DNA of 64,000 nt, from contig NC_047018.1 in NCBI RefSeq assembly GCF_902652985.1, positions 17,670,001 to 17,734,000 on the forward strand, in the 5' to 3' direction. Below are positions 14,118-57,988 of the stretch, one piece after another; position 1 is the first letter of the stretch, and each line of letters opens with the position of its first letter. A program made the translations under genes and the position numbers. Below the pieces are notes generated by a model. The model was not told the origin of the DNA and ran no database searches. It saw nothing but the letters and a program-made list of their open reading frames with translations. The stretch is from Pecten maximus (taxonomy: Eukaryota).

Positions 14118-14339
14118 TATCATATCATAACCTGTCGATATCGTGTTAGTAATCCATCAGGTTGATATAGGGGTTGACGTCTGTTTCTTGGCACTCTGGA
14201 GGAGCATTCGGAATAGCAGAGTAGCCGTCTTTATTAACGTAATGGAGGCGCCTCCGGAAGGGCGAAGGAGCAGACGGAATTATTTTATTTGTGAGTTTTC
14301 GGAATGGAGATATAAAATGAAGCTGAGGATGAAACGAAG

Positions 14340-18600: not shown

Positions 18601-18762
18601 CGATAGTACTAGAAACAAGGTAATGTGATCCCGATAGTACTAGACACAAGGTAATGTGATCCCGATAGTACTAGACATAAGGTAATGTGACCCCGATAGG
18701 TACCAGACACAAGGTAATGTGACCCCGATAGTACTAGACACAAAGCAGTGTGACCCCGATAG
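15663..18762. repeat. Satellite, 31-bp unit, ~100 copies
   Basis: gtactagacacaaggtaatgtgatcccgata; highly homogeneous. Confidence 0.97.
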
Positions 18763-21333: not shown

Positions 21334-22076
21334 GTTCCTGAGATTGTCGATAGTAGTTCAGATGTAGAAGGTGTGCCTGAGATTGTCGATAGTAGTTCAG
21401 ATGTAGAAGTTGTTCCTGGGATTGTTGATAGTAGTTCAGATGTAGAAGTTGTTCCTGGGATTGTTGATAGTAGTTCAGATGTAGAAGCTGTTCCTGGGAT
21501 TGTTGATAGTAGTTCAGATGTAGAAGCTGTTCCTAAGATTGTTGATAGTAGTTCAGATGTAGAAGCTGTTCCTGGGATTGTTGATAGTAGTTCAGATGTA
21601 GAAGCTGTTCCTAAGATTGTTGATAGTAGTTCAGATGTAGAAGCTGTTCCTGGGATTGTTGATAGTAGTTCACATGTAGAAGCTGTTCCTGGGATTGTTG
21701 ATAGTAGTTCAGATGTAGAAGTTATTCCTGAGATTGTTGATAGTAGTTCAGATGTAGAAGCTGTTCCTGGGATTGTTGATAGTAGTTCACATGTAGAAGT
21801 TGTTCCTGAGATTGTCGATAGTAGTTTAGATGTAGAAGTTGTTCCTGAGATTGTCGGTAGTAGTTCACATGTAGAAGTTGTTCCTGAGATTGTTGATAGT
21901 AGTTCAGATGTAGAAGTTGTTCCTGAGATTGTCGATAGTAGTTCAGATGTAGAAGTTGTTCCTGAGATTGTTGATAGTAGTTCACATGTAGAAGTTGTTC
22001 CTGAGATTGTCGATAGTAGTTTAGATGTAGAAGTTGTTCCTGAGATTGTCGATAGTAGTTCAGATGTAGAAGCTGT
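21334..22076. repeat. Minisatellite, 39-bp unit, ~19 copies
   Basis: gttcctgagattgttgatagtagttcagatgtagaagtt. Confidence 0.95.
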
Positions 22077-33661: not shown

Positions 33662-35496
33662 CAGTGGCGTAGGAAGCGGGGGGGCAGGGGGGGCAAGTTT
33701 GAGAGTTAAAGAATCAACTATTGTGATACTCTCAAAATTACCTTTACTCTTTATGTTTCAGGTGGCAAATCATGAACTTATCAGTCCGCGGACAAATTAA
33801 CTTTATAACTAGAATAAATGAACACCCGTCTTTTATGCTGACACAGTACGAATAAAAATGCATCCCTCTTGTCAAAAAATTGTCTAACATGTAACTTATT
33901 AACGCCTAGCAAGGAATATAACAATGACATCGCCTTGCAATGATTGTTTATGGATACCCTAAACACGTTTCAACAGTGGGAAACGCTCCTGTTATTCTGA
34001 ACATCATCCTAAAGTCTACCAAAGCTTATATATAATCAGAATCATTTGAACTTAGTTGGACCTAGCTAAGGATATTCAACTTCAATACTCACACAGCGAT
34101 AATCCAGGTCGTCCAACTGCGAAAAGCAGACCGATGAAAAATATACCCCTTGCCATCAGGAATACATACGGAAGACTGTCTGCCGAGTTTTGTTACTGTA
34201 TAAATGACCGCCAAGTATCATTGCGTCAACAGGAAGAGATAAATTTCATTTGGAGTCAAACTTATCTTATATATATGTATATATATTCCTACAGTTGATG
34301 TAATTACACTGTTACTACATTGTACATATAAACTAATGTCAACAGATCATGCCCTTACACTGACAGTTAATATAACTGTCAGTGGCGTAGGAAGCGGGGG
34401 GGCAGGGGGGGCAATTGCCCCCCCACTTTTTACAGTGGGGGGGCAAACATGTCTTTTTGCCCCCCCACTTTTTGACATCCAAAATCTAAAAAAAGGGGAA
34501 AAAACACGAATTTATATATTCATTTCGATAAATATCTGTATATTTTCGAACCGATAATGTTTTCTTGAAGGCAACGATAAAAACTTTATCTTGTACATCC
34601 GGAACATTCCGACTTTTATACTAGTATACCAATCCTCAGACCTGTGTGTCGGTCGTCTGCACTAGCCTGGTAAGTCAATATTTATATCTTAATACGAAAT
34701 TTTGCTTAACTTAATCACATAGTTTCAATAAGTTGATGATAATTTGTGAAGTTAATTGAGTTCATAATGAGAACAAGACAGAAACACAACATAAATAAGA
34801 ATGCGCGGTTTTAACGTGAATCGAGTGATACTATTTACCAACAGGTACGAGGAAATACAAAAAAAAATCGGCTCGCGCCTACGGCGCTCGCTTTATCACT
34901 AAATTACTGCCCCCCCCCCCTTTCGATTGCAGATCCACAGGGGGACTTTGCCACCCTGGTACCCGCTTGGCGACCCCCAAACCTCTCGCAAAAAGGGGAA
35001 AAAAATCGGATCGCGCCTACGGCGCTCGCATGATTACTTAATTACTGGACCCCCTTTCGAAAACTCTGGATCCGCGCCTGATCCCGAATTATTGGAAATG
35101 TGCTATATTTCATTTTCCGCGAAGGGCTTAGACCCCCTTGAACCCCCTATCAGGGCGCTGCCCTGGACCCGCTGGGCGGCCCCTCAGACCCCTCGTTGAA
35201 AAAAAAAATAAAATAAAATCGGCTCGCGCCTACGGCGCTCGCATTATTACTTAACTACTGGAAATTTCGAAAATCCTGGCCGGGCCTGGTGATTCATGTT
35301 TTGCCATAAATAATATATCCTGATTTGCGTAAATAACTTATTTTGTACTACATAAATTATCAAAATTATCATGGGATGTTGAAATGATAATTATTGGCTA
35401 ATTTTGCGGAGATGGCATACGATTTGTTTAGTGCGTAAAATTTAAGGTTAAAAAAAATTTTGCCCCCCCACTTTTTGACGACTTCCTACGCCACTG
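33662..35496 (+). mobile_element. Composite DNA-transposon insertion: 35-bp terminus + 683 bp captured flank + full 1.1-kb non-autonomous hAT-like element (34380-35496)
   Basis: TIR CAGTGGCGTAGGAAG at 33662 and 34380, and inverted ending at 35496. TATGG on both sides (33657-33661, 35497-35501). 33697-35496 is the reverse complement of 36845-38643. Confidence 0.8.
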
Positions 35497-36544
35497 TATG
35501 GTACGTTAAGTTCGACTTAGCAGCGACGTCGGTAATCCCGGCTTTACTGGTTGAATTGCTTACATACTATGTTAAAATATAGTCACTGCAGTGCAGATGA
35601 AAATATATTTTGTGAATATCCACATATGAAAAATCCCAATGTGTTAACAGCCCACTTCCGTCCGTGTTATGTGTTGTATCTGACCGTGTTTATTACATTT
35701 CCTGTTCATCGGACTTATCCCATCCCACTCACTACGTTTCTTAATGGTCATCGAGTATAATTGTTTTATGGAAGAAAGTTTAGTATCATTCATTTTACAT
35801 CATATATATATACCGCATATAATATTTCATAAACACAAAACAAAGAAAATTACCTAGTAGACGTTGTAAAAAATATATATAGATTGATTAACTTTAGGAG
35901 CATTATAGTTCTTCTACATGCAGGACAAGCAACTGGATTAAAAAATATACTATTTTTTTTAATGAAGATTAAAACAGCAGCCTGTGGACTAACAACTGCT
36001 GTTGGTACAGGAGGTCAAATTGAGGTAATCCGCCGATGTTTTATAGCACTCGGCCTTTGGCCTCGTTCAATAGAACATCGGTCGTACTATGGTACCTCGT
36101 GTCAAATATTCTGGACTATTGCACAGACACTTATGATATATTGGCCTCAGACCACAATTAATTTCCCTATTTCTTATACCAATGTAAAATGATTATTTAT
36201 AACTATTCAAGCTGAAAGTACTTCATGACCTGCATTTAAGAAATATATTTTTGTTTAAATGTTACCACCCCCCTATATTATGGGAAAATCCGGAAAATTA
36301 CAAAATATCACTACTCCGGCCTTATAACACCTTGTGTCCCTGCACAAACAAACATGGAAATGGTGTCAAAACAAAATTCTCTAACTAAAATAGATATTGA
36401 ACTACAAATATATGTTTAAATTATGCACATATCTGCAATAGCTAAGTCAGAAAAAAATATTTAGTAACATACCTCAAATTTACTTTTGCACTACATTCGT
36501 GTACAACGACCCGGAAGTATAATTGTGGTCTGAGGCCAGTATTT

Positions 36545-36844
36545 GTATAATATTAACTGTCAAGGTAATGTCATAATATGTTTTAATACTTTATATAGTA
36601 ACTATTTTATATCAAGTTATATCAACTGTCAGGGTAACGGCATAATATGTTGCCAATAGTTTATATAGTAACTGTTTATATCAAGTTATATTAACTGTCA
36701 GGGTAAAGTCATAATCTGTTTTAATAGTTTATATGGTAACTACATTCTGTATTTTGTATCCAGTTATATTAACAGTCAGGGTAAGGGCATGATCTGTTTT
36801 AATAGTTGATATGGTAACTACATTCTGTATTTTATATCCAGTTA
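36545..36844. repeat. Tandem repeat, ~70-78-bp unit, continuing after the transposon at 37961-38030
   Basis: atattaactgtcagggtaa..cataat.tgttttaatagtttatat repeated. Confidence 0.8.
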
Positions 36845-37960
36845 CAGTGGCGTAGGAAGTCGTCAAAAAGTGGGGGGGGCAAAATTTTTTTTAACCTTAA
36901 ATTTTACGCACTAAACAAATCGTATGCCATCTCCGCAAAATTAGCCAATAATTATCATTTCAACATCCCATGATAATTTTGATAATTTATGTAGTACAAA
37001 ATAAGTTATTTACGCAAATCAGGATATATTATTTATGGCAAAACATGAATCACCAGGCCCGGCCAGGATTTTCGAAATTTCCAGTAGTTTAGTAATAATG
37101 CGAGCGCCGTAGGCGCGAGCCGATTTTATTTTATTTTTTTTTCAACGAGGGGTCTGAGGGGCCGCCCAGCGGGTCCAGGGCAGCGCCCTGATAGGGGGTT
37201 CAAGGGGGTCTAAGCCCTTCGCGGAAAATGAAATATAGCACATTTCCAATAATTCGGGATCAGGCGCGGATCCAGAGTTTTCGAAAGGGGGTCCAGTAAT
37301 TAAGTAATCATGCGAGCGCCGTAGGCGCGATCCGATTTTTTTCCCCTTTTTGCGAGAGGTTTGGGGGTCGCCAAGCGGGTACCAGGGTGGCAAAGTCCCC
37401 CTGTGGATCTGCAATCGAAAGGGGGGGGGGCAGTAATTTAGTGATAAAGCGAGCGCCGTAGGCGCGAGCCGATTTTTTTTTGTATTTCCTCGTACCTGTT
37501 GGTAAATAGTATCACTCGATTCACGTTAAAACCGCGCATTCTTATTTATGTTGTGTTTCTGTCTTGTTCTCATTATGAACTCAATTAACTTCACAAATTA
37601 TCATCAACTTATTGAAACTATGTGATTAAGTTAAGCAAAATTTCGTATTAAGATATAAATATTGACTTACCAGGCTAGTGCAGACGACCGACACACAGGT
37701 CTGAGGATTGGTATACTAGTATAAAAGTCGGAATGTTCCGGATGTACAAGATAAAGTTTTTATCGTTGCCTTCAAGAAAACATTATCGGTTCGAAAATAT
37801 ACAGATATTTATCGAAATGAATATATAAATTCGTGTTTTTTCCCCTTTTTTTAGATTTTGGATGTCAAAAAGTGGGGGGGCAAAAAGACATGTTTGCCCC
37901 CCCACTGTAAAAAGTGGGGGGGCAATTGCCCCCCCTGCCCCCCCGCTTCCTACGCCACTG
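36845..37960 (-). mobile_element. Non-autonomous hAT-like DNA transposon; putative donor copy
   Basis: 15-bp TIR CAGTGGCGTAGGAAG/CTTCCTACGCCACTG. Three internal gcgagcgccgtaggcgcga repeats. Inserted in a tandem array; TSD is ambiguous (ccagtta/acagtta). Confidence 0.85.
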
Positions 37961-39333
37961 ACAGTTATATTAACTGTCAGTGTAAGGGCATGATCTGTTG
38001 ACATTAGTTTATATGTACAATGTAGTAACAGTGTAATTACATCAACTGTAGGAATATATATACATATATATAAGATAAGTTTGACTCCAAATGAAATTTA
38101 TCTCTTCCTGTTGACGCAATGATACTTGGCGGTCATTTATACAGTAACAAAACTCGGCAGACAGTCTTCCGTATGTATTCCTGATGGCAAGGGGTATATT
38201 TTTCATCGGTCTGCTTTTCGCAGTTGGACGACCTGGATTATCGCTGTGTGAGTATTGAAGTTGAATATCCTTAGCTAGGTCCAACTAAGTTCAAATGATT
38301 CTGATTATATATAAGCTTTGGTAGACTTTAGGATGATGTTCAGAATAACAGGAGCGTTTCCCACTGTTGAAACGTGTTTAGGGTATCCATAAACAATCAT
38401 TGCAAGGCGATGTCATTGTTATATTCCTTGCTAGGCGTTAATAAGTTACATGTTAGACAATTTTTTGACAAGAGGGATGCATTTTTATTCGTACTGTGTC
38501 AGCATAAAAGACGGGTGTTCATTTATTCTAGTTATAAAGTTAATTTGTCCGCGGACTGATAAGTTCATGATTTGCCACCTGAAACATAAAGAGTAAAGAT
38601 TATTTTGAGAGTATCACAATAGTTGATTCTTTAACTCTCAAACAATGGGAACCTAATAGAACATTCCCAAATTTAAACTTAGTGAAAAGATATCTTCCTT
38701 TATTCGCTAACCCGACCAGGTTGTCCAAGAGCGTAACCGTCTTCTGTTCCCCCCCAAAAAATGCGCTACGTTAATCTAGATCAAATCCAAATACTAGTAC
38801 TGGCGACCTCTTTAACTGATTCTAAAATGATGGAAATGAAGACTTTTTCTTCATATTTTATGAGAATATGAAAAATGTTTCAAACATGTTGTTAATACCA
38901 TATAACTTACTTATCCATGTGTATCATTGACTATGGTGTACGTTTGTCTGTCCCACATATCAAATCAAATCATATTAAATGAATGCCACAGTTAGGGGAA
39001 GCAGGCTTGCTACTATATACCCCCTCAACCATTTATATGTATTCCATCCCTGTAAAAACTTACTTAGTATATCTATATTTCTCGGAATTGAGTCTGAATA
39101 GCGTACTTGCAAAGGCAGTATGATATATGAATGTATAAGGATTCGGTGGAACTCTTTAACTCTGTCGGTCCCCAGAAAATATCGGGAAAGGTCATCACCG
39201 CCGGAAGTGATGCCCTTTAAGAGAATACAAAACTGGAGCTTGTAGGGTTTTTTTAAGGTGAAAATGGATATATGCATATTGTTAAAAACTTAATGATTTA
39301 ACGTTTTAAAACTAGTATCTGTTTTAAACAACT

Positions 39334-43217: not shown

Positions 43218-43441
43218 TCAGCCTCGAGGGGACAAATCCTCAGTCCGCCATTGCAGGAGTGTGTTTATAATGTCCGAGTAATGGGCAAAGAAGACTGACC
43301 GGTTGTAGGAAATGAGACGTAAAAACTGACCGCAGACCTGGCCTAATTCTTCCTCCACGACAGAAAACCCCACCGGCATCTGTAAAGGCTTTGTATGCTT
43401 CTTGGAAATTATCTGTTTGATAAATTCCTTTAATCTCTTGG
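43218..43441 (-). CDS. TCP11L1: T-complex protein 11-like (TCP11L1/L2 family), terminal coding exon
   Basis: tttcag acceptor. Encodes AKRLKEFIKQ...PVGFSVVEEELGQVCGQFLRLISYNRSVFFAHYSDIINTLL...stop, matching the TCP11-family C-terminal pattern (F.RL..YN..VF..Y..I). Phase matches the upstream exon. The paralog assignment is uncertain. Confidence 0.85.
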
Positions 43442-44580
43442 CTGAAATTGAAAGAAAATTCAAATATAGTCATATTTTCTTTTTCTAAAATCATTATGAC
43501 AACCATAAAATCATTTAGTAAAACCGGTTGTTTTAGAATTATTTTCCAAAATTTGATAATTCTGTTTCCTTCAAGTGGACCCTTAAAACGGGACAGAGCA
43601 TTTCTTTCAAAAATCTTTCTTTCACATTAATAACTGTAAATCACATAAATTTTGTGAGGGATTTATTTTCGTGTTAATTATTTGTATGAAATTAAAACCT
43701 TCAGATGACGGCCCAGCTATTGCTTATCTAAAAGCTTATCACTAGCAAATTTAAAGTCATTTCTACTTCAGTTTTCACGAAATCGTGTATTTGCGAATAT
43801 GACTGAAAAGTTAACCTCATGAAATTAAAAATTTGCAAAATCTACGTGATTTAAAGTACTTCCTACAAGATCTGGTTGAAAAAAGTCTTGTGGTTACTTA
43901 AGGTCAAGTAAATAAAGACAGAAGATACGTGATAGACAAATAACAATGGAACATATTGTATAATAAGGCCATGCCTAGTAATAAGCCCACCTATGTATAT
44001 TGGAGTTCATTGGACTCGTCCGATACCAAACAAATACCATTTCATTGTCCTATAATTAATTTTTCTTTGTTTTCATGGTAAATACTCAAATGTGATTGGT
44101 CGAAAAATTCTTTCATTCTTCTATGAAAGAAATTCCGAGAATGGTGCGAAAAATATGACGTCACAATACGACAATTGACGTTGCGTATTGATTTGAGAAA
44201 AAGAATCCCATTTAAAACCAGTAAAATTGCACATAAAACATGTTGTAAATTAGAAAATCATTTTCAAAAATTAATTATAAGCGTTGATGCCAATTTTTTT
44301 ATGCGGATTCATATAGTTTGCAAACAAAATTTATTTCATACCCCGATGAAACTAAAAGAAAATGACATCAATGCTTAAATGAATCAGAAGAAAAATCTCA
44401 ACAGGCAGGGGGTGGGTTATTCTAGTTTTATTAGGTAGTTGGCCGATTCCTAATAAAAACTATAAGAACTTTACCTCCTGCCTGTTGAGATTGTCTCTAC
44501 TTGATCATAATTTATTCTACATATTAAATCCCCTGCATACCCCCGGGTATCCAGATGGAAGGTGAAGGACACATTAATTC

Positions 44581-45010
44581 CAATCTAATTAAAATCTAGA
44601 TGGTCATTCTCACTACGTTACATGAACATCTAACGACATCGCATAAGGGGTCACCTTCTGATGACCTTTGAAATGTGTGTATTTCACTTTCAGGGCGAAT
44701 TGTCAATTTTTCGATATCATCGGAGCAAAATATTTCGTCACAGCTGCATCAGAAGCAAACCATTTCGGCACAGCATGTATATATAGCTATATGCTTTGTG
44801 GGACGAAATGACTTGAAACAAATAGACAGATTATGCAAGCTATGTATTCTAGTCATGATAACTCGGACATATAAAATTCACTTCCAAGATTCTGGAAGTA
44901 GTCATTTGATTGGCTAATCCAAAAGGTCACCCTGACGTGACCCCTTATGGGATGTTGATAGATGTTCATGTAACTTAGTGAGAATGAGCATCTAGATTTT
45001 AATTAGATTG
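44581..45010. mobile_element. MITE with ~75-bp TIRs and 9-bp TSD (Mutator/MULE-like), intronic
   Basis: TIR caatctaattaaaatctagatg.... TSD cattaattc at 44572-44580 and 45011-45019. Confidence 0.85.
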
Positions 45011-45366
45011 CATTAATTCACTACTCGAGGGATGATATTGGCTCTATTCCTAATACATATTTCATTGTCCTATAATAGCCTCACTTTCTGATACAGAGTC
45101 AGAGGTTGTAATTGCATCTTGTACTTATTGCAGTGTACTTGTGGGCAAGGAGAGTTGAAAACAATATGAGTCTAACATTAAAGGAATATGTTTAAAGTTT
45201 TATAAGACACCATTTCTGTGTTTCAAGAGCTTCATTAACCCTGTAGACTACCAATGATTCATTGGTAAATATCTGAGATAAATAAAAAAAAAAAAATGAA
45301 GATCGCAAAATTTTTGACTCGCAAAAATAACCAGCTCTACGATAATACATGGTACGCTACACTCAC

Positions 45367-45533
45367 CGACTAGTTTGTATACAGGGTGGTCATGGCTCGA
45401 CACTTGCTGAATCTGACCGGTCAGCATCGCCTGCTGGTCAGTCCCCCATTCCTTAAACCCATGTTCTGGCAGGTACTCTCGCACCGACTTGTTGATCTGT
45501 TCCGCTACATTGATCATCTTGTCATTTAGGTCA
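45367..45533 (-). CDS. TCP11L1: TCP11-like, penultimate coding exon
   Basis: Bounded by ttccag and G|gtgagt. Encodes DLNDKMINVAEQINKSVREYL...QQAMLTGQIQQVSSHDHPVYKLV. Confidence 0.85.
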
Positions 45534-46370: not shown

Positions 46371-47493
46371 TGTTGCCGCCCAGCCCGTAAGGCTAGAGAA
46401 AACAACTTTTTGTGGATCTTTTGTCCCCAGTTGTTAAACAGACCAGAACAGACAAACAAAGACAGATATAAATTTAAAGCATTTATTAACAAGCACAATC
46501 AACAAATATACAATGTATAGTTACCCCTAATGCCTCATTTAATAGGCTTACCCCTAGAAATATACAGTAACTAATAATGCACAGTCATAGTGAAGGTGCA
46601 AGGCAAGTCCTCAGAAGGTGCACTGTGAAGGTGCTACCAGACCGTGAAGGTGCTACCTACTCTGAAGGTGCAATCAGTGAAGGTGCTACCAAGCATAGAA
46701 TGGTGCTACAGTGTCTACTAAGGTGCATTATTGGCCTTAAGATATTCATATACCATAAGGTTTACATAATAAATACATAAATAATAGTAAATTGATTGAC
46801 TGAATAGTTATAACTCCATACACGCGACCGTACACATCTTCCTGAAGGTGCAACCAAGTCTGAAGGTGCTGCTAAGTCTGAAGGTGCTATTTAGCACAAC
46901 TTATATATATATATTCAGCACTGGGATCATACAGTAAATTGTCTGTCCAACAGCATTATGTTCTCCTGCTGGGTATTTACCTCGGCTGCCATAGCTATGC
47001 ATACAATCTGGTTCAATCTGGTTCAGCTATCAGCTACAGGGACGTGGGCTACCGTTCACGACAGAATGCCACTCTGTGCTGGCTGTCACCGCTATTTATG
47101 CACTGTGTGACGTCACAAATCTGTAGACGTCACACCCATTCAATTTCCCGCGCTCGTTGACTCTCAATACTGTCAGCCAATCAGCAGCGTTGTTACAACA
47201 GTTAGGCAAATGCTCTTGAATCCCGGCGATGTTTACGAAGAACAACTCTCCTTGTTTACGATGCAAAAACCGCTATTTTCTGATGAAATACAGACTGCTA
47301 CATCGTAATTATGATCAATAGGTATGTGTTATGTGTTCAAGAACCGTTAGTTTTAATAGTCTTGTATCGTCAATACGTATAATGAATATAACAGCGGAGA
47401 ATCGGACTCGTGTGCAAACAGCTGGCTGCGCCATATTGTTTTGCTGTCTCGGACATGTGGTCGGGAACAGACTGCACTGCCGTGTGTGTAACA
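46371..47493 (-). repeat. 3' LTR (1123 bp)
   Basis: TGTTACAC...GCGGCAACA on the minus strand. Direct repeat of 55982-57109. Confidence 0.97.
46482..46487 (-). terminator. Putative poly(A) signal AATAAA in the 3' LTR
   Basis: AATAAA on the element strand ~110 nt from the LTR end, followed by GT/T-rich sequence. Confidence 0.6.
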
Positions 47494-47506
47494 TTGCCCC
47501 CTTCTT
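47494..47506 (-). promoter_or_regulatory. Polypurine tract
   Basis: AAGAAGGGGGCAA immediately before the 3' LTR TG. Confidence 0.9.
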
Positions 47507-49185
47507 AAGAATTGGCTTTGGTCTCCAAAGAGGTAAGTGGTCGGTATTATTCATTATATTATTCTGACTGACACATGTCAATGATGTATATCATAATTTG
47601 AGCACCCAGTCGTTTCATCAATCCAACCACGTGTTTATACCAGTCAGTCAAATTCACACATTTCCATGTCCGACCGCTCACCATGCTTGGTTGTCACGTG
47701 TATTTCATTGCACAGTCTGTCTCAGCAATAATAAATGTCATGGTATGCCCATGACCATTTGTGAAATAGATATATCTACTGAAGTACATGTTACATAATA
47801 TAATTTGCAATTTTATTATAAAAGTCACTGGATAGTCAGTGAAATAACCATTCTGTACATGGAAATAGAAATTATGAGATTGTTCCATTCCCAAAAACAT
47901 ACATGTACATATATGTAGATATATCTACTGGCAAAGCAATAAAAACTTGACTGCCATATAAAATACCATATTTAATATTGGTACAAATTTGCAATATTAA
48001 TGATCATCAGCTTTCAATTGTCATCAGTTAAGATCATAATCAATAAGACAAAGGATTATTGATCATTAAAAATTGAGACAAAATTCATAACATGCTTAAT
48101 GCAAATTACTTAACATAAAAAAAATATTTAACAGACTGTACACCTTAGTTCAGTTCTAACACAATAATTTGAAAATATATTACTTTTACCTTGATAATGG
48201 TATTGTACATACTTTAAAAATATAAATATATATATTACTTTTACCTTGATGTACAAAAATAGTAGCAATTATTAAATTACTGATTTGAGTAAAAAAATAG
48301 ATAATATCTTAATTCAAAAACACTCAGTCTGGCGCTCTTGAAACTGTCAACATATACATGTATGACTCTGCTAAGTATAAATATTTTAGCTGCATGTATT
48401 CAAAGTATATATATATATATATATATGCTGTATTCATAATGTGATATATGATGCTCCTGAGTCCTGATTTCCAAGTATTTTCTTAATTTTCTTTCAGTTG
48501 TTGGAGGTTCTGGAACAGGCTGCTACAAAGCACCTCAGCTCGGGTTAAAACTCAGCAACTTGTTATGACGGTAATGACCACAGGTGTATTCAGGGTTATA
48601 CTCAACTTATAGGTATCACAATTGCAAGTCCTCATGCAGGAATCAGGAAGTTCACATATATATCTCCATCAGTCTCCTGAGGGGTAATTTTACAATATGT
48701 AACATAAATTTACAATATGTGTCCTGCATGTCCTATGACTGCTATATCAAAAATGTATGTACTTAATTAAAGATACATTATATGATCCATAGTTACATGA
48801 ATCTAAGTTAATACACACACCATGTGTTATATATTACAACCATACATTACTAGTCATTAGTTTTAAGCTATTTCACTGATATATATATAGTGACAATAAT
48901 ACTAATGTCATATTAAGTCTCCTGAAAAGACTAACATTCTCACATTTCCATATATTATATTAAGTAATTGTTCAATTAGATAAATAGAAAGAAACAGACT
49001 TTGTGAAATGCAGAAGTATAAGATCTGTTTGTTGATCTGTAGAATTATATAGTAGTCTGGTAAAAATAAAACCATTAATTTAAGCCTACAATTAAAGTTT
49101 CAATAAATATAAAATTGTGTATTTTCTTAATCTATTGAGGCTGGAATCTACTTTGCTACAATCTATAATTTGTTTTCTACTATTT

Positions 49186-50703
49186 CTATAGGAGAGAAGA
49201 TATTCTCAAGTCCAGGACATCATGGAGATGACTCAGCTGGTAGTAGTCAGCCTCCATCTGGAGTTCTCTCAGGAAATGGATGTCCGTGGGAAGGGTCTCC
49301 ATGTTTACCCTCATCCTGTTCCGATAATAATTTAGGATAAATCTAAAATGTGAGTAATCACGATCGATAAAATATGTATAAACTCCCTCCACAGAATACG
49401 GTTTGATTCCGAGTTTCTTCTGCACCATTCTGTGAAGAAGACTATTGGGAACTTCTGCCAAAGTTGTCGCTGATGTCTCGAACCTCTTCCCGCCTACATT
49501 TAATATAATTCGTTTGTTCTGTGATCTTCTAAGTTGTTCCATTCGTCTATCTCTTACCACTGCCCCCTCCGTTCTACTACTACTGCTATGACTTCTTTCT
49601 CTGCTACTACCATGACTAGAGCCTCTGCTGCTGCTTCTGCTCCTACTGTCTCCGCTACTGTCTCTACTACTGCTTCTACTACTTCCTCTACTGACTTGTT
49701 CCTCTGTAACTGTCACCTCCTCTATCTCGCCTAAATCGTCTATCTCCAACTGATTCATATCCCCATTCTTTGTCTCCTCCCTCTCCTTCTCCTGTATGAC
49801 AGCCTCCTCTATCTCCTGTCTTCTTTCTTCTTGCTGTTTCCTCTCCTCCTGTCTTTCCTCTTGTCTCTCCTTGTCTTGTCTCTCCTTCTCCTGTCTCTCT
49901 TTCTCTTGTCTCTCCTTCTCCTGTCTCTCCTTCTCCTGTCTCTCCTTCTCCTGTCTCTCCTTCTCCTGTGTCTCCTTCTCCTGTCTCTCCTTCTCCTGTG
50001 TCTCCTTCTCCTGTCTCTCCTTTTCCTGTCTTTCCTTCTCTTGTCTTTCCTTCTCTTGTCTCTCCTTCTCTTGTCTCTCCTTCTCTTGTCTCTCCTTCTC
50101 TTGTCTCTCCTTCCCCTGTCTTTCTTTTTCCTGTCTTTCCTTCTCTTGTCTCTCCTTTTCCAGTCTCTTTTTTTTCTTCCTTCTCTCCTGTCTCTCTTTT
50201 TCTTGTCTCTCCTTGTCTAGTCTCTCCTTGTCTTGTCTCTCCTCCACCTTTTGTGGGCTCTCTTCCTTTTCTTTCTTTTCATTTCCGTGTTTCCCATCAT
50301 CAATCCTCTGCACTTTGTTACTGTCTATGACTTCCAGACTTTCCCTGCTGATCTCCCTTTTCCTTTTTTCTGTCTTCTGATGGCTTATTGTTCTGTTCTC
50401 AGTTGACTGGTTTGGTTTTCCAGCAACAGTGGTAATCAGTTGGACGGTGGACCTCAGGAACCTATTGTACTCATCATCGACCCCTGGACCACTCGTCATA
50501 TCTGCCCTCCTGACCAGGGTCATCTCGGGGAGTTTCCCGTCTTTGCAGCATTGATGCTTCGATGTTGACCGATTAAATAGCAGCTTGCATCTCTGGCACT
50601 TCCAAGCAAAGCCGGAGTGCTGCTCCAGCATATGTCGCTTGGCCAGGTATTTGGCACGGAAACGATAAGTATTATCACACAGGCTGCAGGAAAACATGCA
50701 CTC
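49186..50703 (-). CDS. Retrotransposon accessory ORF3: two zinc fingers, (KERQE)n charged helix, Ser/Arg-rich tract, KCTD/Kv-T1-type BTB/POZ domain
   Basis: Intact frame of 505 codons after a strong acceptor (cctcctacttttttttattgcag|GAG). CSLC-x12-RHMLEQH (C2H2) and CQRC..KHQC. BTB motifs IILNVGGKRFETSATTL, YFIDRDYSHFRFILNYYR, LQMEADYYQL. Confidence 0.9.
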   Translation of the reverse strand, partial: ECMFSCSLCDNTYRFRAKYLAKRHMLEQHSGFAWKCQRCKLLFNRSTSKHQCCKDGKLPEMTLVRRADMTSGPGVDDEYNRFLRSTVQLITTVAGKPNQSTENRTISHQKTEKRKREISRESLEVIDSNKVQRIDDGKHGNEKKEKEESPQKVEERQDKERLDKERQEKERQERRKKKKRLEKERQEKERQEKERQGKERQEKERQEKERQEKERQEKERQEKERQEKERQEKETQEKERQEKETQEKERQEKERQEKERQEKERQEKERQEKERQDKERQEERQEERKQQEERRQEIEEAVIQEKEREETKNGDMNQLEIDDLGEIEEVTVTEEQVSRGSSRSSSRDSSGDSRSRSSSRGSSHGSSRERSHSSSSRTEGAVVRDRRMEQLRRSQNKRIILNVGGKRFETSATTLAEVPNSLLHRMVQKKLGIKPYSVEGVYTYFIDRDYSHFRFILNYYRNRMRVNMETLPTDIHFLRELQMEADYYQLSHLHDVLDLRISSLL

Positions 50704-50771
50704 CTGCAATAAAAAAAAGTAGGAGGAACTAAGCTATGATGAAATAATCGTTTTACTCGATATATAAGTTT

Positions 50772-53700
50772 CTAAAGAGTTATTGTGGTTTTCCCAACAT
50801 ATAACTTCAGATGATCATGGTGTACAACCTTGGGTTTGGACTTAGCACTGCGCTGGATACGATAAATGTTGTCATTTAAACGCTCGAGTACTACAAATGG
50901 ACCGCTCCACTTTTTCTGGAATTTATTTCTTCGTCCTTTCCTTTGGGAATCATAAAGCCAAACCTGGGCACCGCGATCATATCTGTGCAATTCTGCATGT
51001 GCATCATAAGCTCTTTTCATCCTATCACTTGACAATTTTAATTTATCACGTGCAAATTTGTGAATGGTTTCTAATTGTTTGGCCAAGTTGTAAGCATAAT
51101 CACTCTGAAACTCGTGATTTTCTTTAACAGGTTCTACACGTCCGAGGACCAAATCTACCGGAAGGGAAACCTTACGGCCTAACATCATCTCGCAGGGGGA
51201 GACACCGGTACTGTCATGTTCAGCTGATCGGTAAGCTAGCATCAACAGGTAAACGTGTTGGTCCCAATCTTTTTGGTTATTTGATACAAAAGCGGATAAC
51301 ATATTCGCGATTGTTCTATTTGCTCTTTCAATCATTCCGTCTGATTGGGGTCGATAAGGTGTTGTCCTTGTCTTTTCTATTCCTAGAATATTACACATTT
51401 CTTGTATAACTGTCGATTCAAAATTTTGACCCTGGTCTGAATGTAACTGCATGGGAACTCCGAAAAGGGAGACAACTCTCTCTATAATTTTCTCTGCAAT
51501 ACTGTGAGCTTTTTGATCCCTAATTGGTACAGCATCTACCCACTTTGTAAAGTAATCACCCATCACCAACAAATAGCTATTTCCTTTACTGCTAACTGGT
51601 AGTGGTCCCATGATATCTACTGCTAGTCTTTCCATGGGGGCCCCAACAAGATATTGTTTTAAAGGGGATCTATGTTTCCTTCTAACTGTCTTCCTCTGTG
51701 CACACTGATCACAAATTCTGCACCAGTGCTTTACATCCTCCCTCAGATGGTACCAGAAATATCTTGATTTTACTTTTGATAATGTTTTCTTTACACCAAG
51801 ATGTCCACCAGTAATTGAATCATGTAATTCTTTCAAAACAAAGTCAACCAAACAGCTAGGTATTACCTTGTGATATTCTATGATACTGCCAAAATTAGAT
51901 TCCCATTGTCTAGTCAACACCCCATCTACTAGTTGTAAAGATTCGAATCTTGACCAGTAGTATTTGACAGCCTCACTCAAATGGCTTATTTCAGGCCAAG
52001 GAGGTTTTTCTCCTTTACATATCCATTGCAGAATATGCCTCAGGTCAGGATCTCTTTCCTGTAACTCTTTTAGTTTCTTTGGTGTAATGTCATTTGTTTC
52101 ATTTGTCTGGGTCTCTACACATGGTTTTGTAGGAGTCTGTAATTTGCTGGACCTAGTAATAACATCTACCTCTATGGAACAGTTATAACGTCCTTCTGCT
52201 TTACCACAGAACCTACAGTCATCCTCCCCATGGCATGGACGTCTAGATAGAGCATCAGCATTACCATGACTGCGACCTGCCCTGTGTTCAACCTCAAAGT
52301 CATATGAGGACAGCAGTTCAAACCACCTGGCTATTTGGCCTTCAGGGTTTTTGAAGTTCAACAGCCACCTGAGTGCACCATGGTCAGTCCTGACCTTAAA
52401 GTGTCGTCCATACAGGTAATGGTGGAAATGTTTGACAGAGCTCACTATAGCGAGCAATTCTCTCCTAGTCACACAATACTTTCTTTCTGTCTTGCAAAAG
52501 GCTTTACTGTAATAGCAGAGGACCTTCTCTTTTCCTTCCTGCTCTTGAGACAGTACAGCACCTAACCCATTGTCACTAGCATCTGTGTCCAAAATAAATG
52601 CACCTTCAAGTGTAGGATAAGCTAGTATGGGAGCACTTACTAGGGCTCGCTTCAGTTTGTCAAATGCAACTGCACACCCCTCACTCCAGGTAAATGTCTG
52701 ATCATGTTCAGTCAATTTGTGAAGAGGTCTAGCTATATCTGCAAAGTTCCTTACAAATCTTCTATAATAGGAGCAAAGTCCTAAGAAGCTACGAATATCC
52801 TTGACATTCTTTGGAACGGGCCAGTTCTGAACTGCAGCAATTTTACTCTGGTCTGTAGATACACCTTCATCGCTAACTACATGGCCAAGAAAGGACACTT
52901 GTTTTTGTAAAAGATTACATTTCTTTGGACTTAACTTTAGGTTTGCTTCTCTCAGCCTCTCAAATACAAGTCTAAGGTTTTCTATGTGTTTATCAAAGGT
53001 CTTTGAGAAAACAATGATATCATCTAAGTACACTAAGCATATTTTGAAGGACAACTTCATCAACACCTTCTCCATCAACCTCTCAAATGTACCAGGTGCA
53101 TTACATAATCCAAATGGCATGGATATGAACTGCCATAATCCACTGCCAGGTATTGAGAATGCTGTCTTTGGTCTGTCTTCTTCTGCAACCTTAACTTGCC
53201 AATACCCCGATTTTAGGTCAAGGGTGGAAAACCATTTTGAACCTGCAAGAGCATCTAGTGTATCGTCAATTCGAGGCAAAGGGTGGGAATCTTTGATAGT
53301 CACGTCATTAAGTCTCCTATAGTCAATGCAAAATCTAATTGACTGATCTTTCTTTTTCACTAACACTACAGGCGAAGACCAGGGGCTATCAGAAGGTTCT
53401 ATGATACCTTTATCTGCCATATCCTTTATCTCTTGTTCTGCCTCTTGAACCTTAGAAAGGGGTATCCTTCTAGGATGTTGTCGGATAGGGCGTGTAGTAC
53501 CTGTATCTATCTTGTGTTGTACTAAATTAGTCATCCCCATGTCGTCTGTTGATTTTGAGAAAACATCCTGATTATCAATCAGCAGATCTTTTAGTAAATC
53601 TCTCTCCCCTGGGGATAAATTGTGACTAGATCTTGTGAACATATCATTTAAATGTTCTGGTATTTCCTGCTCTTTAGGTGTTTGGTCAGTTCCTATTTGA

Positions 53701-54545
53701 TTTACAATATGTTCCTCAATAGTACAGTCATCTAAGGCTTCTACATTGGCTATGACAGTTTCACTGTATAGCGTATAGGGCTCATCACCTAGATTCACTA
53801 CTCTAATGGGTACTACTCCTCTGCTGGGGTCAATGACAGTTTTAGCAATGAGAACATTCTCAGATTGCTTAAATCTCTGTGAGGGTTCTACCAATCCATT
53901 GGTTTCCCTCCAGACGGGATCCATAAATCTGCCTGTGATAATCATCTCACTATTTGCGGGAACAATCTGTTTCTCCACCACAGCCACTCTTGAACACGAG
54001 GGCTTTTTCTCCTCACAAAATTTGAAACAGGGTACCTTCATACCGTCAACCGCTATACACTGCTTACTCAGCAACACATCACAGGAGTTTTTAGACAGGA
54101 AATCCATACCAATGATTCCTTTGTCCTTAATATCTGCCACAAGCACATTGTGCTTAAACACATTTGATCCTAACTGTATATTGACTACACATTCTCCAAC
54201 AAAGGGTTTCCTATCCCCAGTAGCTGTTACTAAATCTATTTCTACAGGAACAATATTCAGGTCAAACTCCAGGCTTTGTATAAAGTTATTACTTAAAATA
54301 GTAACATTCGCCCCAGTATCTATAAGCATAGGAATGAGTTGATTCTGAACCTTAGCTGACACAAACAACCCTTCTCTAGTTCCCCCTGAACTTCTAACAG
54401 AAATCTGCTTTCTATTTTTCTCTGATTCTCCATGATTGATATTTTCTCTTTCATATCCTTCACCCTTGTTATTATACTTAAGATCCCTTGAGGGCCCATC
54501 TATTCTAGTCGAGCTGCGGCCCCCAACTACGACTGAACTTGGTTT
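50772..54545 (-). CDS. pol: Pol polyprotein (protease, reverse transcriptase, RNase H, integrase), translated by -1 frameshift from gag
   Basis: LIDTGA, RFCIDYRRLN, LDLKSGYWQV, MPFGL, YLDD, DTDAS, TDH, HHCC (H..GGHLG..CRICDQC), DDE (AVDIMGP, HSDQG, GMIERAN), GPF motif. Uninterrupted. Confidence 0.98.
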   Translation of the reverse strand, partial: KPSSVVVGGRSSTRIDGPSRDLKYNNKGEGYERENINHGESEKNRKQISVRSSGGTREGLFVSAKVQNQLIPMLIDTGANVTILSNNFIQSLEFDLNIVPVEIDLVTATGDRKPFVGECVVNIQLGSNVFKHNVLVADIKDKGIIGMDFLSKNSCDVLLSKQCIAVDGMKVPCFKFCEEKKPSCSRVAVVEKQIVPANSEMIITGRFMDPVWRETNGLVEPSQRFKQSENVLIAKTVIDPSRGVVPIRVVNLGDEPYTLYSETVIANVEALDDCTIEEHIVNQIGTDQTPKEQEIPEHLNDMFTRSSHNLSPGERDLLKDLLIDNQDVFSKSTDDMGMTNLVQHKIDTGTTRPIRQHPRRIPLSKVQEAEQEIKDMADKGIIEPSDSPWSSPVVLVKKKDQSIRFCIDYRRLNDVTIKDSHPLPRIDDTLDALAGSKWFSTLDLKSGYWQVKVAEEDRPKTAFSIPGSGLWQFISMPFGLCNAPGTFERLMEKVLMKLSFKICLVYLDDIIVFSKTFDKHIENLRLVFERLREANLKLSPKKCNLLQKQVSFLGHVVSDEGVSTDQSKIAAVQNWPVPKNVKDIRSFLGLCSYYRRFVRNFADIARPLHKLTEHDQTFTWSEGCAVAFDKLKRALVSAPILAYPTLEGAFILDTDASDNGLGAVLSQEQEGKEKVLCYYSKAFCKTERKYCVTRRELLAIVSSVKHFHHYLYGRHFKVRTDHGALRWLLNFKNPEGQIARWFELLSSYDFEVEHRAGRSHGNADALSRRPCHGEDDCRFCGKAEGRYNCSIEVDVITRSSKLQTPTKPCVETQTNETNDITPKKLKELQERDPDLRHILQWICKGEKPPWPEISHLSEAVKYYWSRFESLQLVDGVLTRQWESNFGSIIEYHKVIPSCLVDFVLKELHDSITGGHLGVKKTLSKVKSRYFWYHLREDVKHWCRICDQCAQRKTVRRKHRSPLKQYLVGAPMERLAVDIMGPLPVSSKGNSYLLVMGDYFTKWVDAVPIRDQKAHSIAEKIIERVVSLFGVPMQLHSDQGQNFESTVIQEMCNILGIEKTRTTPYRPQSDGMIERANRTIANMLSAFVSNNQKDWDQHVYLLMLAYRSAEHDSTGVSPCEMMLGRKVSLPVDLVLGRVEPVKENHEFQSDYAYNLAKQLETIHKFARDKLKLSSDRMKRAYDAHAELHRYDRGAQVWLYDSQRKGRRNKFQKKWSGPFVVLERLNDNIYRIQRSAKSKPKVVHHDHLKLYVGKTTITL

Positions 54546-54548
54546 CCC
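54493..54548 (-). promoter_or_regulatory. -1 ribosomal frameshift signal: slippery heptamer G GGA AAC plus a putative H-type pseudoknot
   Basis: GGGAAAC at 54548-54542 in the gag frame; pol is in the -1 frame. Downstream stem agtcg.agttg/cagctcgact has a loop gggcc complementary to ggccc further 3'. Confidence 0.8.
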
Positions 54549-55789
54549 TGGTTGATGTTTCCATTGTACCACCCATTGGAGTTTCCCCCTTTCTGGTTGG
54601 ACCATTTTCTATTTGAATTACCACTCGGGTTCCATCCCCTTTGGTGGTTATTTGACTGAGTTTGTTTATTTCCCCCTTTATTTGAGTCTACTTTTGTTTT
54701 ACTGTCAGACTGCTTCTGTAATTTCACCAAGGCCTTAATTTCCTTTGTGAGAGAGCTAAGCTCATCTTTGAATCCCTGAAGCAAGGAGGCAGTGCTGTCA
54801 GTTTCACAAGTGGGTTTTTGTGTGCTGTCAGCCGTAGTACTACAGACTGTGCGTGTAGGTCTACTCCTTTGCTTATCTGCAAGTCGATGGGTCTCAAGTC
54901 TAACTGCTTGGATTTCTGCTTCATTTATGTCTCTTGGTCTTGACTCCTTTAGTCGCAGTCTTATGTCAGCGTCTGGAATTGATTCAATGAAATTTTCCAG
55001 TGCTAGAGTCCCTACTAATTTGGAGTCAGCAGTCGGGTAGGCACGTCGTGTCAGTCTCCTTATTGATTGAGCTAATTCCGGAATTGATTCCTCTTTAGCA
55101 CGTACACGAGTTTGTAATTGAGCTCGAAATAATTCCGCTTTTTCTGCAGAACCAAATCTAAATTTCAAGGCTTCAACTAAAGATTTGAAATCTCTACGAC
55201 TGGTTTCATCTAACTCGCTCAGAACTGCACGGGCACTTCCAGATAAACTACCAGCTAAATACAGTGATTTAGAAGCATATGACCAATTGTTTAGTTCCGC
55301 TAAGATTTCAAACTGCGAGATATATTCCTCAAAGTCTTCGCACCCGTCATACTGCTGTGGCTTCATTAAAACCTTATTTACTGCAGCATGTTTTGATTGG
55401 AAAGGTACACTCGGAAATGAATTTGTACGGTTATCATTCCTATTTCGGTCATTGTTTAACGGTGTGCTATGCCTAGAACCCATTATGTGATCACCACGAT
55501 CATCTTCAACACCTATCTCTGCATCTTGTACTTTATTTTCTAAATCTTCAAGAACTGCTCTTAGATTATTGATTTGTTCTTTTAATTCACCTTTATCTGC
55601 CCTGCATTTAATGTTCTCTACATTTCTATTTTCAGATACAGTTTCTCTATCTGGTACAACAATTTCAGCATCCTCAATGGGACAACTAGAGCTCATCTGC
55701 ACCTCAGTATCATCACCTTCATGTGTACTAGCATTTTCATCCATGCCAATCAACAGATTACGGCCAAAGAACACCTCAGAGTCATCCAT
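54527..55789 (-). CDS. gag: Gag (capsid-like), 420 aa
   Basis: Lies after the PBS. KPQQYDGCEDFEEYISQFE, LAGSLSGSA, LKFRFG, R.RAKEESIPELAQSIRRLTRRAYP. No CCHC knuckle. Confidence 0.95.
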   Translation of the reverse strand: MDDSEVFFGRNLLIGMDENASTHEGDDTEVQMSSSCPIEDAEIVVPDRETVSENRNVENIKCRADKGELKEQINNLRAVLEDLENKVQDAEIGVEDDRGDHIMGSRHSTPLNNDRNRNDNRTNSFPSVPFQSKHAAVNKVLMKPQQYDGCEDFEEYISQFEILAELNNWSYASKSLYLAGSLSGSARAVLSELDETSRRDFKSLVEALKFRFGSAEKAELFRAQLQTRVRAKEESIPELAQSIRRLTRRAYPTADSKLVGTLALENFIESIPDADIRLRLKESRPRDINEAEIQAVRLETHRLADKQRSRPTRTVCSTTADSTQKPTCETDSTASLLQGFKDELSSLTKEIKALVKLQKQSDSKTKVDSNKGGNKQTQSNNHQRGWNPSGNSNRKWSNQKGGNSNGWYNGNINQGNQVQS

Positions 55790-55962
55790 TTTTGTTCTTG
55801 TTAATTACAAAATAAATATCTTTAAATGACTGCTCTGGCTTTGTCAGGTGTTACCAGGAAAGCATGTTATCAAACATCTATGTATACATTGCATTTGCTG
55901 TTTGGCTTGTTAATCTGTTAAGTTTTCTGCTCTGACTGTTCACTGAATGACAAAATATGAAG

Positions 55963-55980
55963 ATCCCACTTCTGACACCA
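55963..55980 (-). promoter_or_regulatory. Primer binding site complementary to the tRNA-Leu 3' end
   Basis: TGGTGTCAGAAGTGGGAT, one base after the 5' LTR. Confidence 0.9.
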
Positions 55981-56596
55981 ATGTTGCCGCCCAGCCCGTA
56001 AGGCTAGAGAAAACAACTTTTTGTGGATCTTTTGTCCCCAGTTGTTAAACAGACCAGAACAGACAAACAAAGACAGATATAAATTTAAAGCATTTATTAA
56101 CAAGCACAATAATCAACAAATATACAATGTATAGTTACCCCTAATGCCTCATTTAATAGGCTTACCCCTAGAAATATACAGTACCTAATAATGCACAGTC
56201 ATAGTGAAGGTGCAAGGCAAGTCCTCAGAAGGTGCACTGTGAAGGTGCTACCAGACCGTGAAGGTGCTACCTACTCTGAAGGTGCAATCAGTGAAGGTGC
56301 TACCAAGCATAGAATGGTGCTACAGTGTCTACTAAGGTGCATTATTGGCCTTAAGATATTCATATACCATAAGGTTTACATAATAAATACATAAATAATA
56401 GTAAATTGATTGACTGAATAGTTATAACCCCATACACGCGACCGTACACATCTTCCTGAAGGTGCAACCAAGTCTGAAGGTGCTGCTAAGTCTGAAGGTG
56501 CTATTTAGCACAACTTATATATATATATATTCAGCACTGGGATCATACAGTAAATTGTCTGTCCAACAGCATTATGTTCTCCTGCTGGGTATTTAC

Positions 56597-56608
56597 CTCG
56601 GCTGCCAT
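56597..56608 (-). CDS. Putative 4-codon initiator mini-exon (MAAE) for ORF3, inside the 5' LTR
   Basis: gctATGGCAGCCGAG|GTAAAT: good Kozak context and a phase-0 donor, ~100 nt downstream of a TATA-like box. In frame with the phase-0 acceptor at 50703. Confidence 0.6.
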
Positions 56609-56679
56609 AGCTATGCATACAATCTGGTTCAATCTGGTTCAGCTATCAGCTACAGGGACGTGGGCTACCGTTCACGACA

Positions 56680-56800
56680 GAATGCCACTCTGTGCTGGCT
56701 GTCACCGCTATTTATGCACTGTGTGACGTCACAAATCTGTAGACGTCACACCCATTCAATTTCCCGCGCTCGTTGACTCTCAATACTGTCAGCCAATCAG
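56680..56800 (-). promoter_or_regulatory. Putative LTR Pol II promoter
   Basis: CATAAATAG TATA-like box (56716-56708), TGACGTCA CRE palindrome (~56724-56731), CCAAT box (~56793), Inr-like GCATTC ~25-30 nt downstream of the TATA-like box. Confidence 0.6.
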
Positions 56801-57109
56801 CAGCGTTGTTACAACAGTTAGGCAAATGCTCTTGAATCCCGGCGATGTTTACGAAGAACAACTCTCCTTGTTTACGATGCAAAAACCGCTATTTTCTGAT
56901 GAAATACAGACTGCTACATCGTAATTATGATCAATAGGTATGTGTTATGTGTTCAAGAACCGTTAGTTTTAATAGTCTTGTATCGTCAATACGTATAATG
57001 AATATAACAGCGGAGAATCGGACTCGTGTGCAAACAGCTGGCTGCGCCATATTGTTTTGCTGTCTCGGACATGTGGTCGGGAACAGACTGCACTGCCGTG
57101 TGTGTAACA

Positions 57110-57988
57110 GATGTCCACTTATAGGTAGCGTCATGGTAGATGTCCACTTATAGGTAACGTCATGGTAGATGTCCACTTATAGGTAACGTCATGGTAGATG
57201 TCCACTTATAGGTAACGTCATGGTAGATGTCCACTTATAGGTAACGTCATGGTAGATGTCCACTTATAGGTGGCGTCATGGTAGATGTCCACTTATAGGT
57301 AACGTCATGGTAGATGTCCACTTATAGGTAGCGTCATGGTAGATGTCCACTTATAGGTAACGTCATGGTAGATGTCCACTTATAGGTAACGTCATGGTAG
57401 ATGTCCACTTATAGGTAACGTCATGGTAGATGTCCACTTATAGGTAACGTCATGGTAGATGTCCACTTATAGGTAACGTCATGGTAGATGTCCACTTATA
57501 GGTAACGTCATGGTAGATGTCCACTTATAGGTAACGTCATGGTAGATGTCCACTTATAGGTAACGTCATGGTAGATGTCCACTTATGGGTAACGTCATGG
57601 TAGATGTCCACTTATAGGTAGCGTCATGGTAGATGTCCACTTATAGGTAACGTCATGGTAGATGTCCACTTATAGGTGGCGTCATGGTAGATGTCCACTT
57701 ATAGGTAACGCTATGGTAGATGTCCACTTATAGGTAACGTCATGGTAGATGTCCACTTATAGGTAGCGTCATGGTAGATGTCCACTTATAGGTGGCGTCA
57801 TGGTAGATGTCCACTTATAGGTGGCGTCATGGTAGATGTCCACTTATAGGTAACGTTATGGTAGATGTCCACTTATAGGTAACGCTATGGTAGATGTCCA
57901 CTTATAGGTAACGCTATGGTAGATGTCCACTTTGGGGTAGCGTCATGGTAGATGTCCACTTATAGGTAACGCTATGGTAGATGTCCAC
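57110..57988. repeat. Satellite, 29-bp unit, ~30 copies, abutting the LTR
   Basis: ggtagatgtccacttataggtaacgtcat. Confidence 0.97.

Follow-up and report, generated by a model that had tools for sequence, protein, structure and literature searches.

A Ty3/gypsy retrotransposon of Pecten maximus with a probable LTR-spliced zinc-finger/BTB ORF3 mRNA and a spliced antisense RNA

Prototype foamy virus is described as carrying its major splice donor in the R region of the long terminal repeat (LTR), upstream of the poly(A) signal (PMC3694450); HBZ SP1 of human T-cell leukaemia virus type 1 (HTLV-1) as an antisense, spliced, and polyadenylated product from the 3' LTR, in which a four-codon LTR exon gives the start codon (PMC1459196); and CERV of the Caenorhabditis elegans element Cer1 as a nuclear protein, translated from a spliced mRNA, that regulates the export of genomic RNA (PMC10309623). 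Here we analyzed a 64,000-nucleotide stretch of the Pecten maximus genome (NC_047018.1, positions 17,670,001 to 17,734,000; hereafter designated the window, to which coordinates refer), in which the minus strand carries a 10.7-kb Ty3/gypsy retrotransposon with the order LTR, primer-binding site (PBS), gag, pol, third open reading frame (ORF3), polypurine tract (PPT), and LTR. It is quite probable that splicing from an LTR-internal donor yields the ORF3 mRNA of this element, and likely that the element combines such an mRNA with a spliced, likely non-coding antisense RNA from the 3' LTR region.

The assignment to Ty3/gypsy follows from the two LTRs, the PBS, the PPT, and a pol order of protease, reverse transcriptase (RT), RNase H, and integrase. 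The LTR pair is 99.4% identical, differing by two substitutions and two short indels, and the element is young and intact in gag, pol, and ORF3. Three further near-identical LTRs occur in the same genome, two of them solo (L004 and L005) with 4-bp target duplications. The features of the element are as follows.

55982..57109, minus strand: 5' LTR, 1128 nucleotides (nt), TG...CA
56709..56716, minus strand: TATA-like box, putative sense promoter by sequence, kept in related LTRs
56597..56608, minus strand: predicted first coding exon of ORF3, Met-Ala-Ala-Glu (ATG plus three codons), followed by the donor
56093..56098, minus strand: AATAAA, the only copy in this LTR and about 500 nt past the donor
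55963..55980, minus strand: PBS by sequence, which we take to be of the tRNA-Leu type
54527..55789, minus strand: gag, with a weak Retrotrans_gag match (E 4e-4, under the Pfam cut-off)
50772..54608, minus strand: pol (protease, RT, RNase H, and integrase in gypsy order), 1278 amino acids (aa) open
50704..50725, minus strand: ORF3 splice acceptor, phase 0, polypyrimidine/CAG, conserved in relatives
49186..50703, minus strand: ORF3 exon, 505 aa, with two C2H2-like fingers, a basic/charged repeat, and a KCTD-type BTB_2 domain
47494..47510, minus strand: PPT by sequence
46371..47493, minus strand: 3' LTR, 1123 nt

The LTR mini-exon and its counterparts in related families

On the minus strand, the LTR contains an ATG at 56608, 108 nt from the TATA-like box (56716), and the four codons that it opens end at 56597, where a GTAAAT donor follows from 56596. 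Joined in phase 0 to the ORF3 exon, which begins at 50703, the mini-exon would add four codons to the 505 aa to give a 509-aa product, with removal of a 5893-nt intron. A preliminary description of this DNA had proposed just this arrangement, and the TATA-like box, ATG, donor, acceptor, phase, and product length were all confirmed. When donors were scored with a simple donor matrix, the LTR donor ranked first of the 77 GTs in the LTR and tied for first among all sense GTs between the LTR and the acceptor. These motifs do exist and exceed what chance would give, and from them we predict the splice that would join them. Just upstream of the TATA-like box stand two TGACGT boxes (56747-56724, minus strand), presumably of the cyclic AMP response element (CRE)-like type, which are also found in several related LTRs.

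If ORF3 is expressed in this way, sense transcription would start about 85 nt before the LTR donor, and the unspliced RNA would serve as both genome and gag-pol message. Splicing would remove U5 and the PBS, and the resulting RNA, having lost the PBS, could not prime reverse transcription. By analogy with foamy virus, a donor that precedes the poly(A) signal may in addition prevent cleavage of the transcript in the 5' LTR, perhaps through U1 binding. The layout resembles that of foamy virus in having a strong donor before the poly(A) signal in both LTRs and a spliced RNA that would lose U5 and the PBS, and differs from it in belonging to a gypsy element without env, in placing an ATG in the LTR exon, and in spacing donor and poly(A) signal by about 500 nt, whereas the whole foamy R region measures 193 nt (PMC3694450). 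ERVL/MaLR LTRs likewise carry promoter, donor, and AUG together and, as with L004 and L005 here, exist as solo copies (PMC5538554). With foamy virus, HBZ SP1, and MaLR as precedents, the earlier presentation of an LTR-internal donor as a departure from the norm was overstated.

Evidence that the arrangement is shared comes first from the acceptor. When the same genome was searched with the finger domain, 43 matches were obtained, and among the 30 loci retrieved, the acceptors of which were read by eye, a pyrimidine tract plus YAG in phase 0 stood shortly before the first Cys in 26; the other four comprised a second piece of the same locus, an indel, and two replaced ends. Outside this genome, 47 of 93 homologues were family-like and 28 had seven or more upstream residues, including some near-duplicate rows; a translated trace of the acceptor ([FLYI]Q at 3-8 residues before the first Cys) was present in 15 of these 28, against a background of 5%. 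A metagenome search gave one locus, genomic, likewise with the acceptor.

The LTRs point in the same direction. Relatives at 20 retrieved locus pairs were gag-pol-ORF3 elements, and LTRs were usable for seven further families (eight in all), the others being truncated, nested, or degraded. Under a fixed rule that took the best GT at 40-200 nt after a TATA box chosen by eye, and which F7 fell outside, a phase-0 ATG was found within ten codons of the donor in four of seven families, namely, F1 (a mini-exon of four codons), F2 (eight or one), F4 (one), and F6 (four); each of these donors ranks first of the 61-95 GTs in its own LTR. The corresponding background was 72 of 494 GTs (15%; P 0.011) or, among good GTs, 11 of 48 (23%; P 0.053). 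The F3 and F7 LTRs have strong donors without an ATG, and an ATG stands directly after the acceptor instead, a pattern that constant use of the LTR exon, with a start codon free to lie on either side of the joint, would produce. Moreover, no ATG intervenes between acceptor and finger in F2, F4, F5, F6, F8, and F9, which therefore need an upstream ATG exon. For F6, in which the TAG of the acceptor is itself an in-frame stop, such an exon is required. The foamy-type order, with the donor upstream of AATAAA, is present in seven of the eight family LTRs, F7 being without AATAAA.

Conservation of ATG and donor in related LTRs, which the preliminary description had suggested examining, held in part: L007 and L008, of a subfamily about 80% identical, keep both with one synonymous change, whereas L006 and L010 do not (see below). 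In that subfamily, the 20 nt of ATG plus donor are identical at 19 positions, compared with 4/20 in the neighbouring block, and other blocks also reach 18-20/20. Separately, five outside homologues (P0073, P0076, P0130, P0084, and P0090) have short Met-initiated N-termini before the finger that are unlike translated intron. These could come from spliced transcripts.

A spliced antisense RNA

RNA evidence was sought in assembled contigs from 8 of the 20 listed runs that contain the stretch, covering seven studies and compared over 50250-57108; two of the eight are on record as RNA. Contigs drop rare forms and show neither transcript start nor level, and gaps in their cover of the leader or U5 prove nothing. 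In all eight runs, from all seven studies, plus-strand GT..AG joints were found, their antisense orientation relative to the element being read from these splice signals. The joint 51230-52210 was present in 8/8 runs, 50646-51131 in 7/8, 52415-55636 in 6/8, and an exon-skipping joint, 51230-55636, in 3/8. The resulting model, read from the 3' LTR side, has seven exons (partly inferred) and about 1.6 kb. This antisense product, which the preliminary description had missed, is the dominant spliced RNA in these data.

46905..47532, plus strand: antisense exon 1, 3' LTR plus 40 nt, from X4 and X16 contigs with a predicted limit; GTAAGT donor at 47533
48498..48570, plus strand: antisense exon 2, predicted from the letter count 40+73+158 = 271 in an X16 contig
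49192..49349, plus strand: antisense exon 3, overlapping the BTB-coding part of ORF3, from loose ends in X1, X3, X12, and X13, with a predicted 5' limit
50424..50646, plus strand: antisense exon 4, joined to 51131 in 7/8 runs
51131..51230, plus strand: antisense exon 5, joined to 52210 in 8/8 runs
52210..52415, plus strand: antisense exon 6, sometimes skipped, joined to 55636 in 6/8 runs
55636..55830, plus strand: antisense last exon, AATAAA at 55811; an X13 contig ends at 55830

Exons 1-3 are placed from loose ends and one letter count. The loose ends in the four runs map to 49320-49349, where a GTGAGT donor follows, and the X16 contig passes from LTR sequence to 50424 through 271 letters, the exact sum of the predicted pieces of 40, 73, and 158 nt. 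The donor at 47533 ranks first of 486 GTs.

The antisense RNA is likely non-coding. A coding role was considered and rejected, the longest antisense ORF, of 90-102 aa, lying within the shuffled range (95th percentile, 107 aa). The likeness to HBZ SP1 consists in an antisense RNA that arises from the 3' LTR side and is both spliced and polyadenylated, and in a four-codon LTR exon with a start codon; unlike HBZ SP1, in which the four-codon exon is antisense and protein-coding, the mini-exon here is sense, and the antisense RNA, of about seven exons, extends across pol and gag and holds no long ORF (PMC1459196). A conserved protein of the HBZ type was looked for and not found, there being neither a long ORF nor antisense splice sites conserved across the families. 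Non-coding antisense RNAs are also reported for the gypsy element micropia (1.0 and 1.6 kb), and the available text of that source does not describe them as multi-exon (PMC7264820).

Whether the RNA is more than a by-product of transcription driven by the LTR or reading through from the host, spliced opportunistically and devoid of a selected role, is evenly balanced. The donor at 51231 is GT in F1 only and AT in the aligned F2, F5, and F6; that at 52416 is GT in F1, F2, F6, and F8 and AT in F3, F4, and F5; the C18 subfamily has lost that at 49350; and the PPT-adjacent donor had no positional match in the other families. Such uneven retention, together with the lack of a long ORF, is consistent with opportunism. 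Against it, the same joints recur across the seven studies, also between alleles that differ by about 1%, each of the six antisense donors is among the top 23 of 486 GTs, and the RNA ends at a poly(A) signal. In the mechanism proposed here, the 3' LTR region is also read backwards into spliced RNA, and the apparently mostly antisense reading of the element in the sampled animals is likely a sign of silencing or a means of it; that the RNA itself has such a role stands at about even chances.

Antisense donors also occur in U3. In X12, those at 56937 and 57099 (plus strand) are joined, in one contig each, to host exons with proper acceptors at G000:C11:26662591 and C10:4619828, the former containing the first part of a gene with a weak DUF4665 likeness (E 0.002). 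No element sequence or LTR was found within 20 kb upstream of either exon in this assembly (G000), and the joints therefore need insertions absent from G000 or are artefacts. Chimeric host transcripts started by the ATG donor, which the preliminary description had imagined as a gene trap, were not seen among the loose ends listed for the eight runs, and this idea has no support here. Here the locus departs from ERVL/MaLR: host-gene capture by the ATG donor was not observed, and both LTR-host joints come from antisense donors (PMC5538554).

Weighing the explanations for ORF3 expression

Several observations weigh against splicing from the LTR donor or against the combined picture. The joint 56597 to 50703 was found in none of the eight runs (contigs over 50250-57108), no loose end at 56597 was among those listed for them, and an X2 contig (56017-56993) crosses the donor unbroken. 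Among the families, F3, F5, and F8 fail the donor rule, F5 offering a nine-codon exon only at a weak donor (rank 6 of 61) and F8 being degraded; for F9 and F10, no LTR was recovered. The donor statistic is modest, and the families, about 47-80% identical in RT/RNase H, are related and not independent. Two older LTR relatives, L006 and L010, have lost the ATG or the donor. An internal ATG at 50697 is kept in the Argopecten homologue P0064 and has similarly placed counterparts in P0065, P0066, and P0068. Finally, the antisense splice sites are mostly not kept in diverged families.

The missing joint is not a refutation, because sense transcription from the LTR is not clearly evident in those runs: contig cover tracks the antisense exons, and leader cover is nil in five runs (X1, X3, X4, X16, and X12). 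The acceptor is used, as one X2 contig has a host Tcp11 exon spliced to it, the only sense joint seen there. The splice put forward in the preliminary description accordingly stands on the conserved acceptor, its use, and the LTR donor with in-frame ATG in diverged families, and lacks the joint itself. An X8 loose end at 55771 maps to contig C3 without splice signals.

An unlikely alternative is that ORF3 is spliced from another donor (55854 in the leader, or 55774 or 55590 in gag), or is transcribed from an internal promoter, and starts at ATG 50697, the LTR motif then serving poly(A) suppression or being incidental. The unseen LTR-to-ORF3 joint favours it, as does the internal ATG, already listed in the preliminary description as an alternative start: it is present and kept in the Argopecten relative, and the LTR ATG is not strictly required in this family. 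The leader donor, raised there as well, exists and scores 1.5 compared with 4.8 for the LTR donor, while 55774 scores -0.8; the gag donor at 55590 equals the LTR donor in score, yet is out of phase with ORF3. The six families that have no ATG between acceptor and finger, and so need an upstream ATG exon, also speak against it, and the starts of the named proteins are gene-caller choices rather than measured ends. Very improbable is the remaining proposal, that the lineage has a spliced ORF3 mRNA which this family hardly makes, ORF3 being expressed mainly through host read-through such as that from Tcp11: the sole sense joint at the acceptor is indeed this out-of-frame one, and leader cover is nil in the five runs above, but with gag, pol, and ORF3 intact, an LTR identity of 99.4%, and near-identical copies at several loci, recent activity is likely. 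Splicing from the LTR donor is, on balance, the explanation that we retain.

The ORF3 protein, its surroundings, and wider meaning

ORF3 carries a KCTD/T1-type BTB domain: the BTB_2 match has E 2e-19 and 70 bits, against a cut-off of 21.4, and the closest solved structure is KCTD16 (E 2e-10). The finger ligands C6, C9, H24, and H29 and C36, C39, H50, and C53 are invariant in 11 of 11 aligned rows. The finger model has a predicted local distance difference test (pLDDT) score of 91, and its fold matches are weak (best Z 5.3, root-mean-square deviation 1.4, 42 aligned; Z under 4 with CTCF/ZBTB fingers), Foldseek giving no match at E 0.001. The full-length protein search returned mostly low-complexity matches, that with the first 100 residues matched only itself, and an Atlas search gave generic C2H2 clusters. 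Named homologues are found in the bivalve genera Argopecten, Pecten, Mizuhopecten, and Pinctada, where they are wrongly annotated as host genes. An env-bearing errantivirus was considered and rejected, as ORF3 has BTB_2 and C2H2-like fingers and, by eye in the translation, no long hydrophobic stretch.

From these domains and by analogy with CERV, the ORF3 protein might form oligomers in the nucleus, bind nucleic acid, and so regulate the expression of the element itself, a proposal to which we give equal chances of being right or wrong. Like the present element, Cer1 is of gypsy type with a non-env ORF after pol, expressed in Cer1 from a spliced mRNA; unlike it, the first exons of CERV share the gag frame and CERV has no homologue outside nematodes, whereas here the first exon lies in the LTR and the protein carries C2H2-like and BTB domains. 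No sequence relation is claimed (PMC10309623). Elements of bdelloids also have captured non-env ORF3s, which are said to be expressed from spliced messages; their types (GDSL, DEDDy, TM, and env) differ from the zinc finger plus BTB found here (PMC5408684).

The surroundings of the element involve a host gene.

45367..45533, minus strand: host Tcp11-family exon, downstream of the 3' LTR

In the X2 contig, the letters upstream of the ORF3 acceptor have a single match, at the end of a Tcp11-family exon on C5, where GTAAGT follows, and by inspection the joint is out of frame. The next Tcp11 exons lie in the window behind the 3' LTR, so placing the 3' end of the element within a Tcp11 intron. The X2 animal thus carries the element within an intron of Tcp11, the exon of which is captured by the ORF3 acceptor. 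A single Tcp11-family gene is split in this assembly, with profile positions 14-311 on G000:C5:4242901-4247958, which ends at a gap, and 315-436 at 43263-45533 of the window (minus strand). No target-site duplication was found at the element, its flanks being CATC and GGTG, and a 29-bp satellite at the 5' flank is shared with contig C1282. The scaffold is probably mis-joined through the element, this copy being a join of two insertions, which, given the split Tcp11 gene, would best explain the missing duplication; its absence does not bear on the family of the element.

Some further features were recorded. Just 5' of the PPT, at 47510-47525, a short inverted repeat with a 3-nt loop was read by eye; it was not the best structure when a longer stretch was folded, and similar repeats with stems differing by family occur in L053, L055, L067, L071, L075, and L085. 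A tandem array at G000:C12:31754152-31778580 has at least five 4.3-kb units, each with an integrase end and an intact-looking F9 ORF3; no LTR was present in the unit examined. Elsewhere in the window, 33697-38643 holds a perfect 1226-nt inverted repeat with inner arms round a 1.4-kb core, like a young foldback or terminal inverted repeat element, and long minisatellite arrays lie at 11641-14115, 14331-15459, 15664-18763, 21334-22076, and 57109-57988 (periods 21, 34, 31, 39, and 29).

Each separate part of the arrangement has a precedent: a donor in R, a four-codon LTR exon, an LTR donor with AUG, a spliced non-env ORF3, and a gypsy antisense RNA. In literature searches that did not extend to Repbase reports and subscription journals, we found neither an LTR-internal donor in a gypsy element nor a zinc-finger/BTB ORF3 in gypsy elements or the lineage carrying it. 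Mollusc gypsy clades are named C-clade, MolGy1-, Mag, and CsRN1 (PMC6238403). In the portions available, the term 'BTB' is absent from PMC13524379, PMC6238403, and PMC6338049, the term 'splic' is absent from PMC3383448 and PMC12801592, and PMC13669377 names no conserved env donor.

A bolder synthesis, tentative and rather doubtful, would see here a widespread, apparently undescribed marine-invertebrate gypsy lineage with a complex-retrovirus programme, in which the R-region donor protects the 5' LTR against polyadenylation while supplying a zinc-finger/KCTD-BTB mRNA that cannot be primed, the start codon is traded between exons, and a bidirectional LTR supplies a latency-keeping antisense RNA and first exons for host genes. 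More narrowly, the zinc-finger/BTB ORF3, which occurs in several bivalve genera, is a candidate for a new type of accessory protein in retrotransposons, and the antisense RNA offers a ready, abundant marker for studying the silencing of young elements in molluscs. If splicing from the LTR is confirmed, an LTR-internal donor with a coding mini-exon would be the rule in a gypsy lineage too, and this layout would have arisen outside retroviruses.

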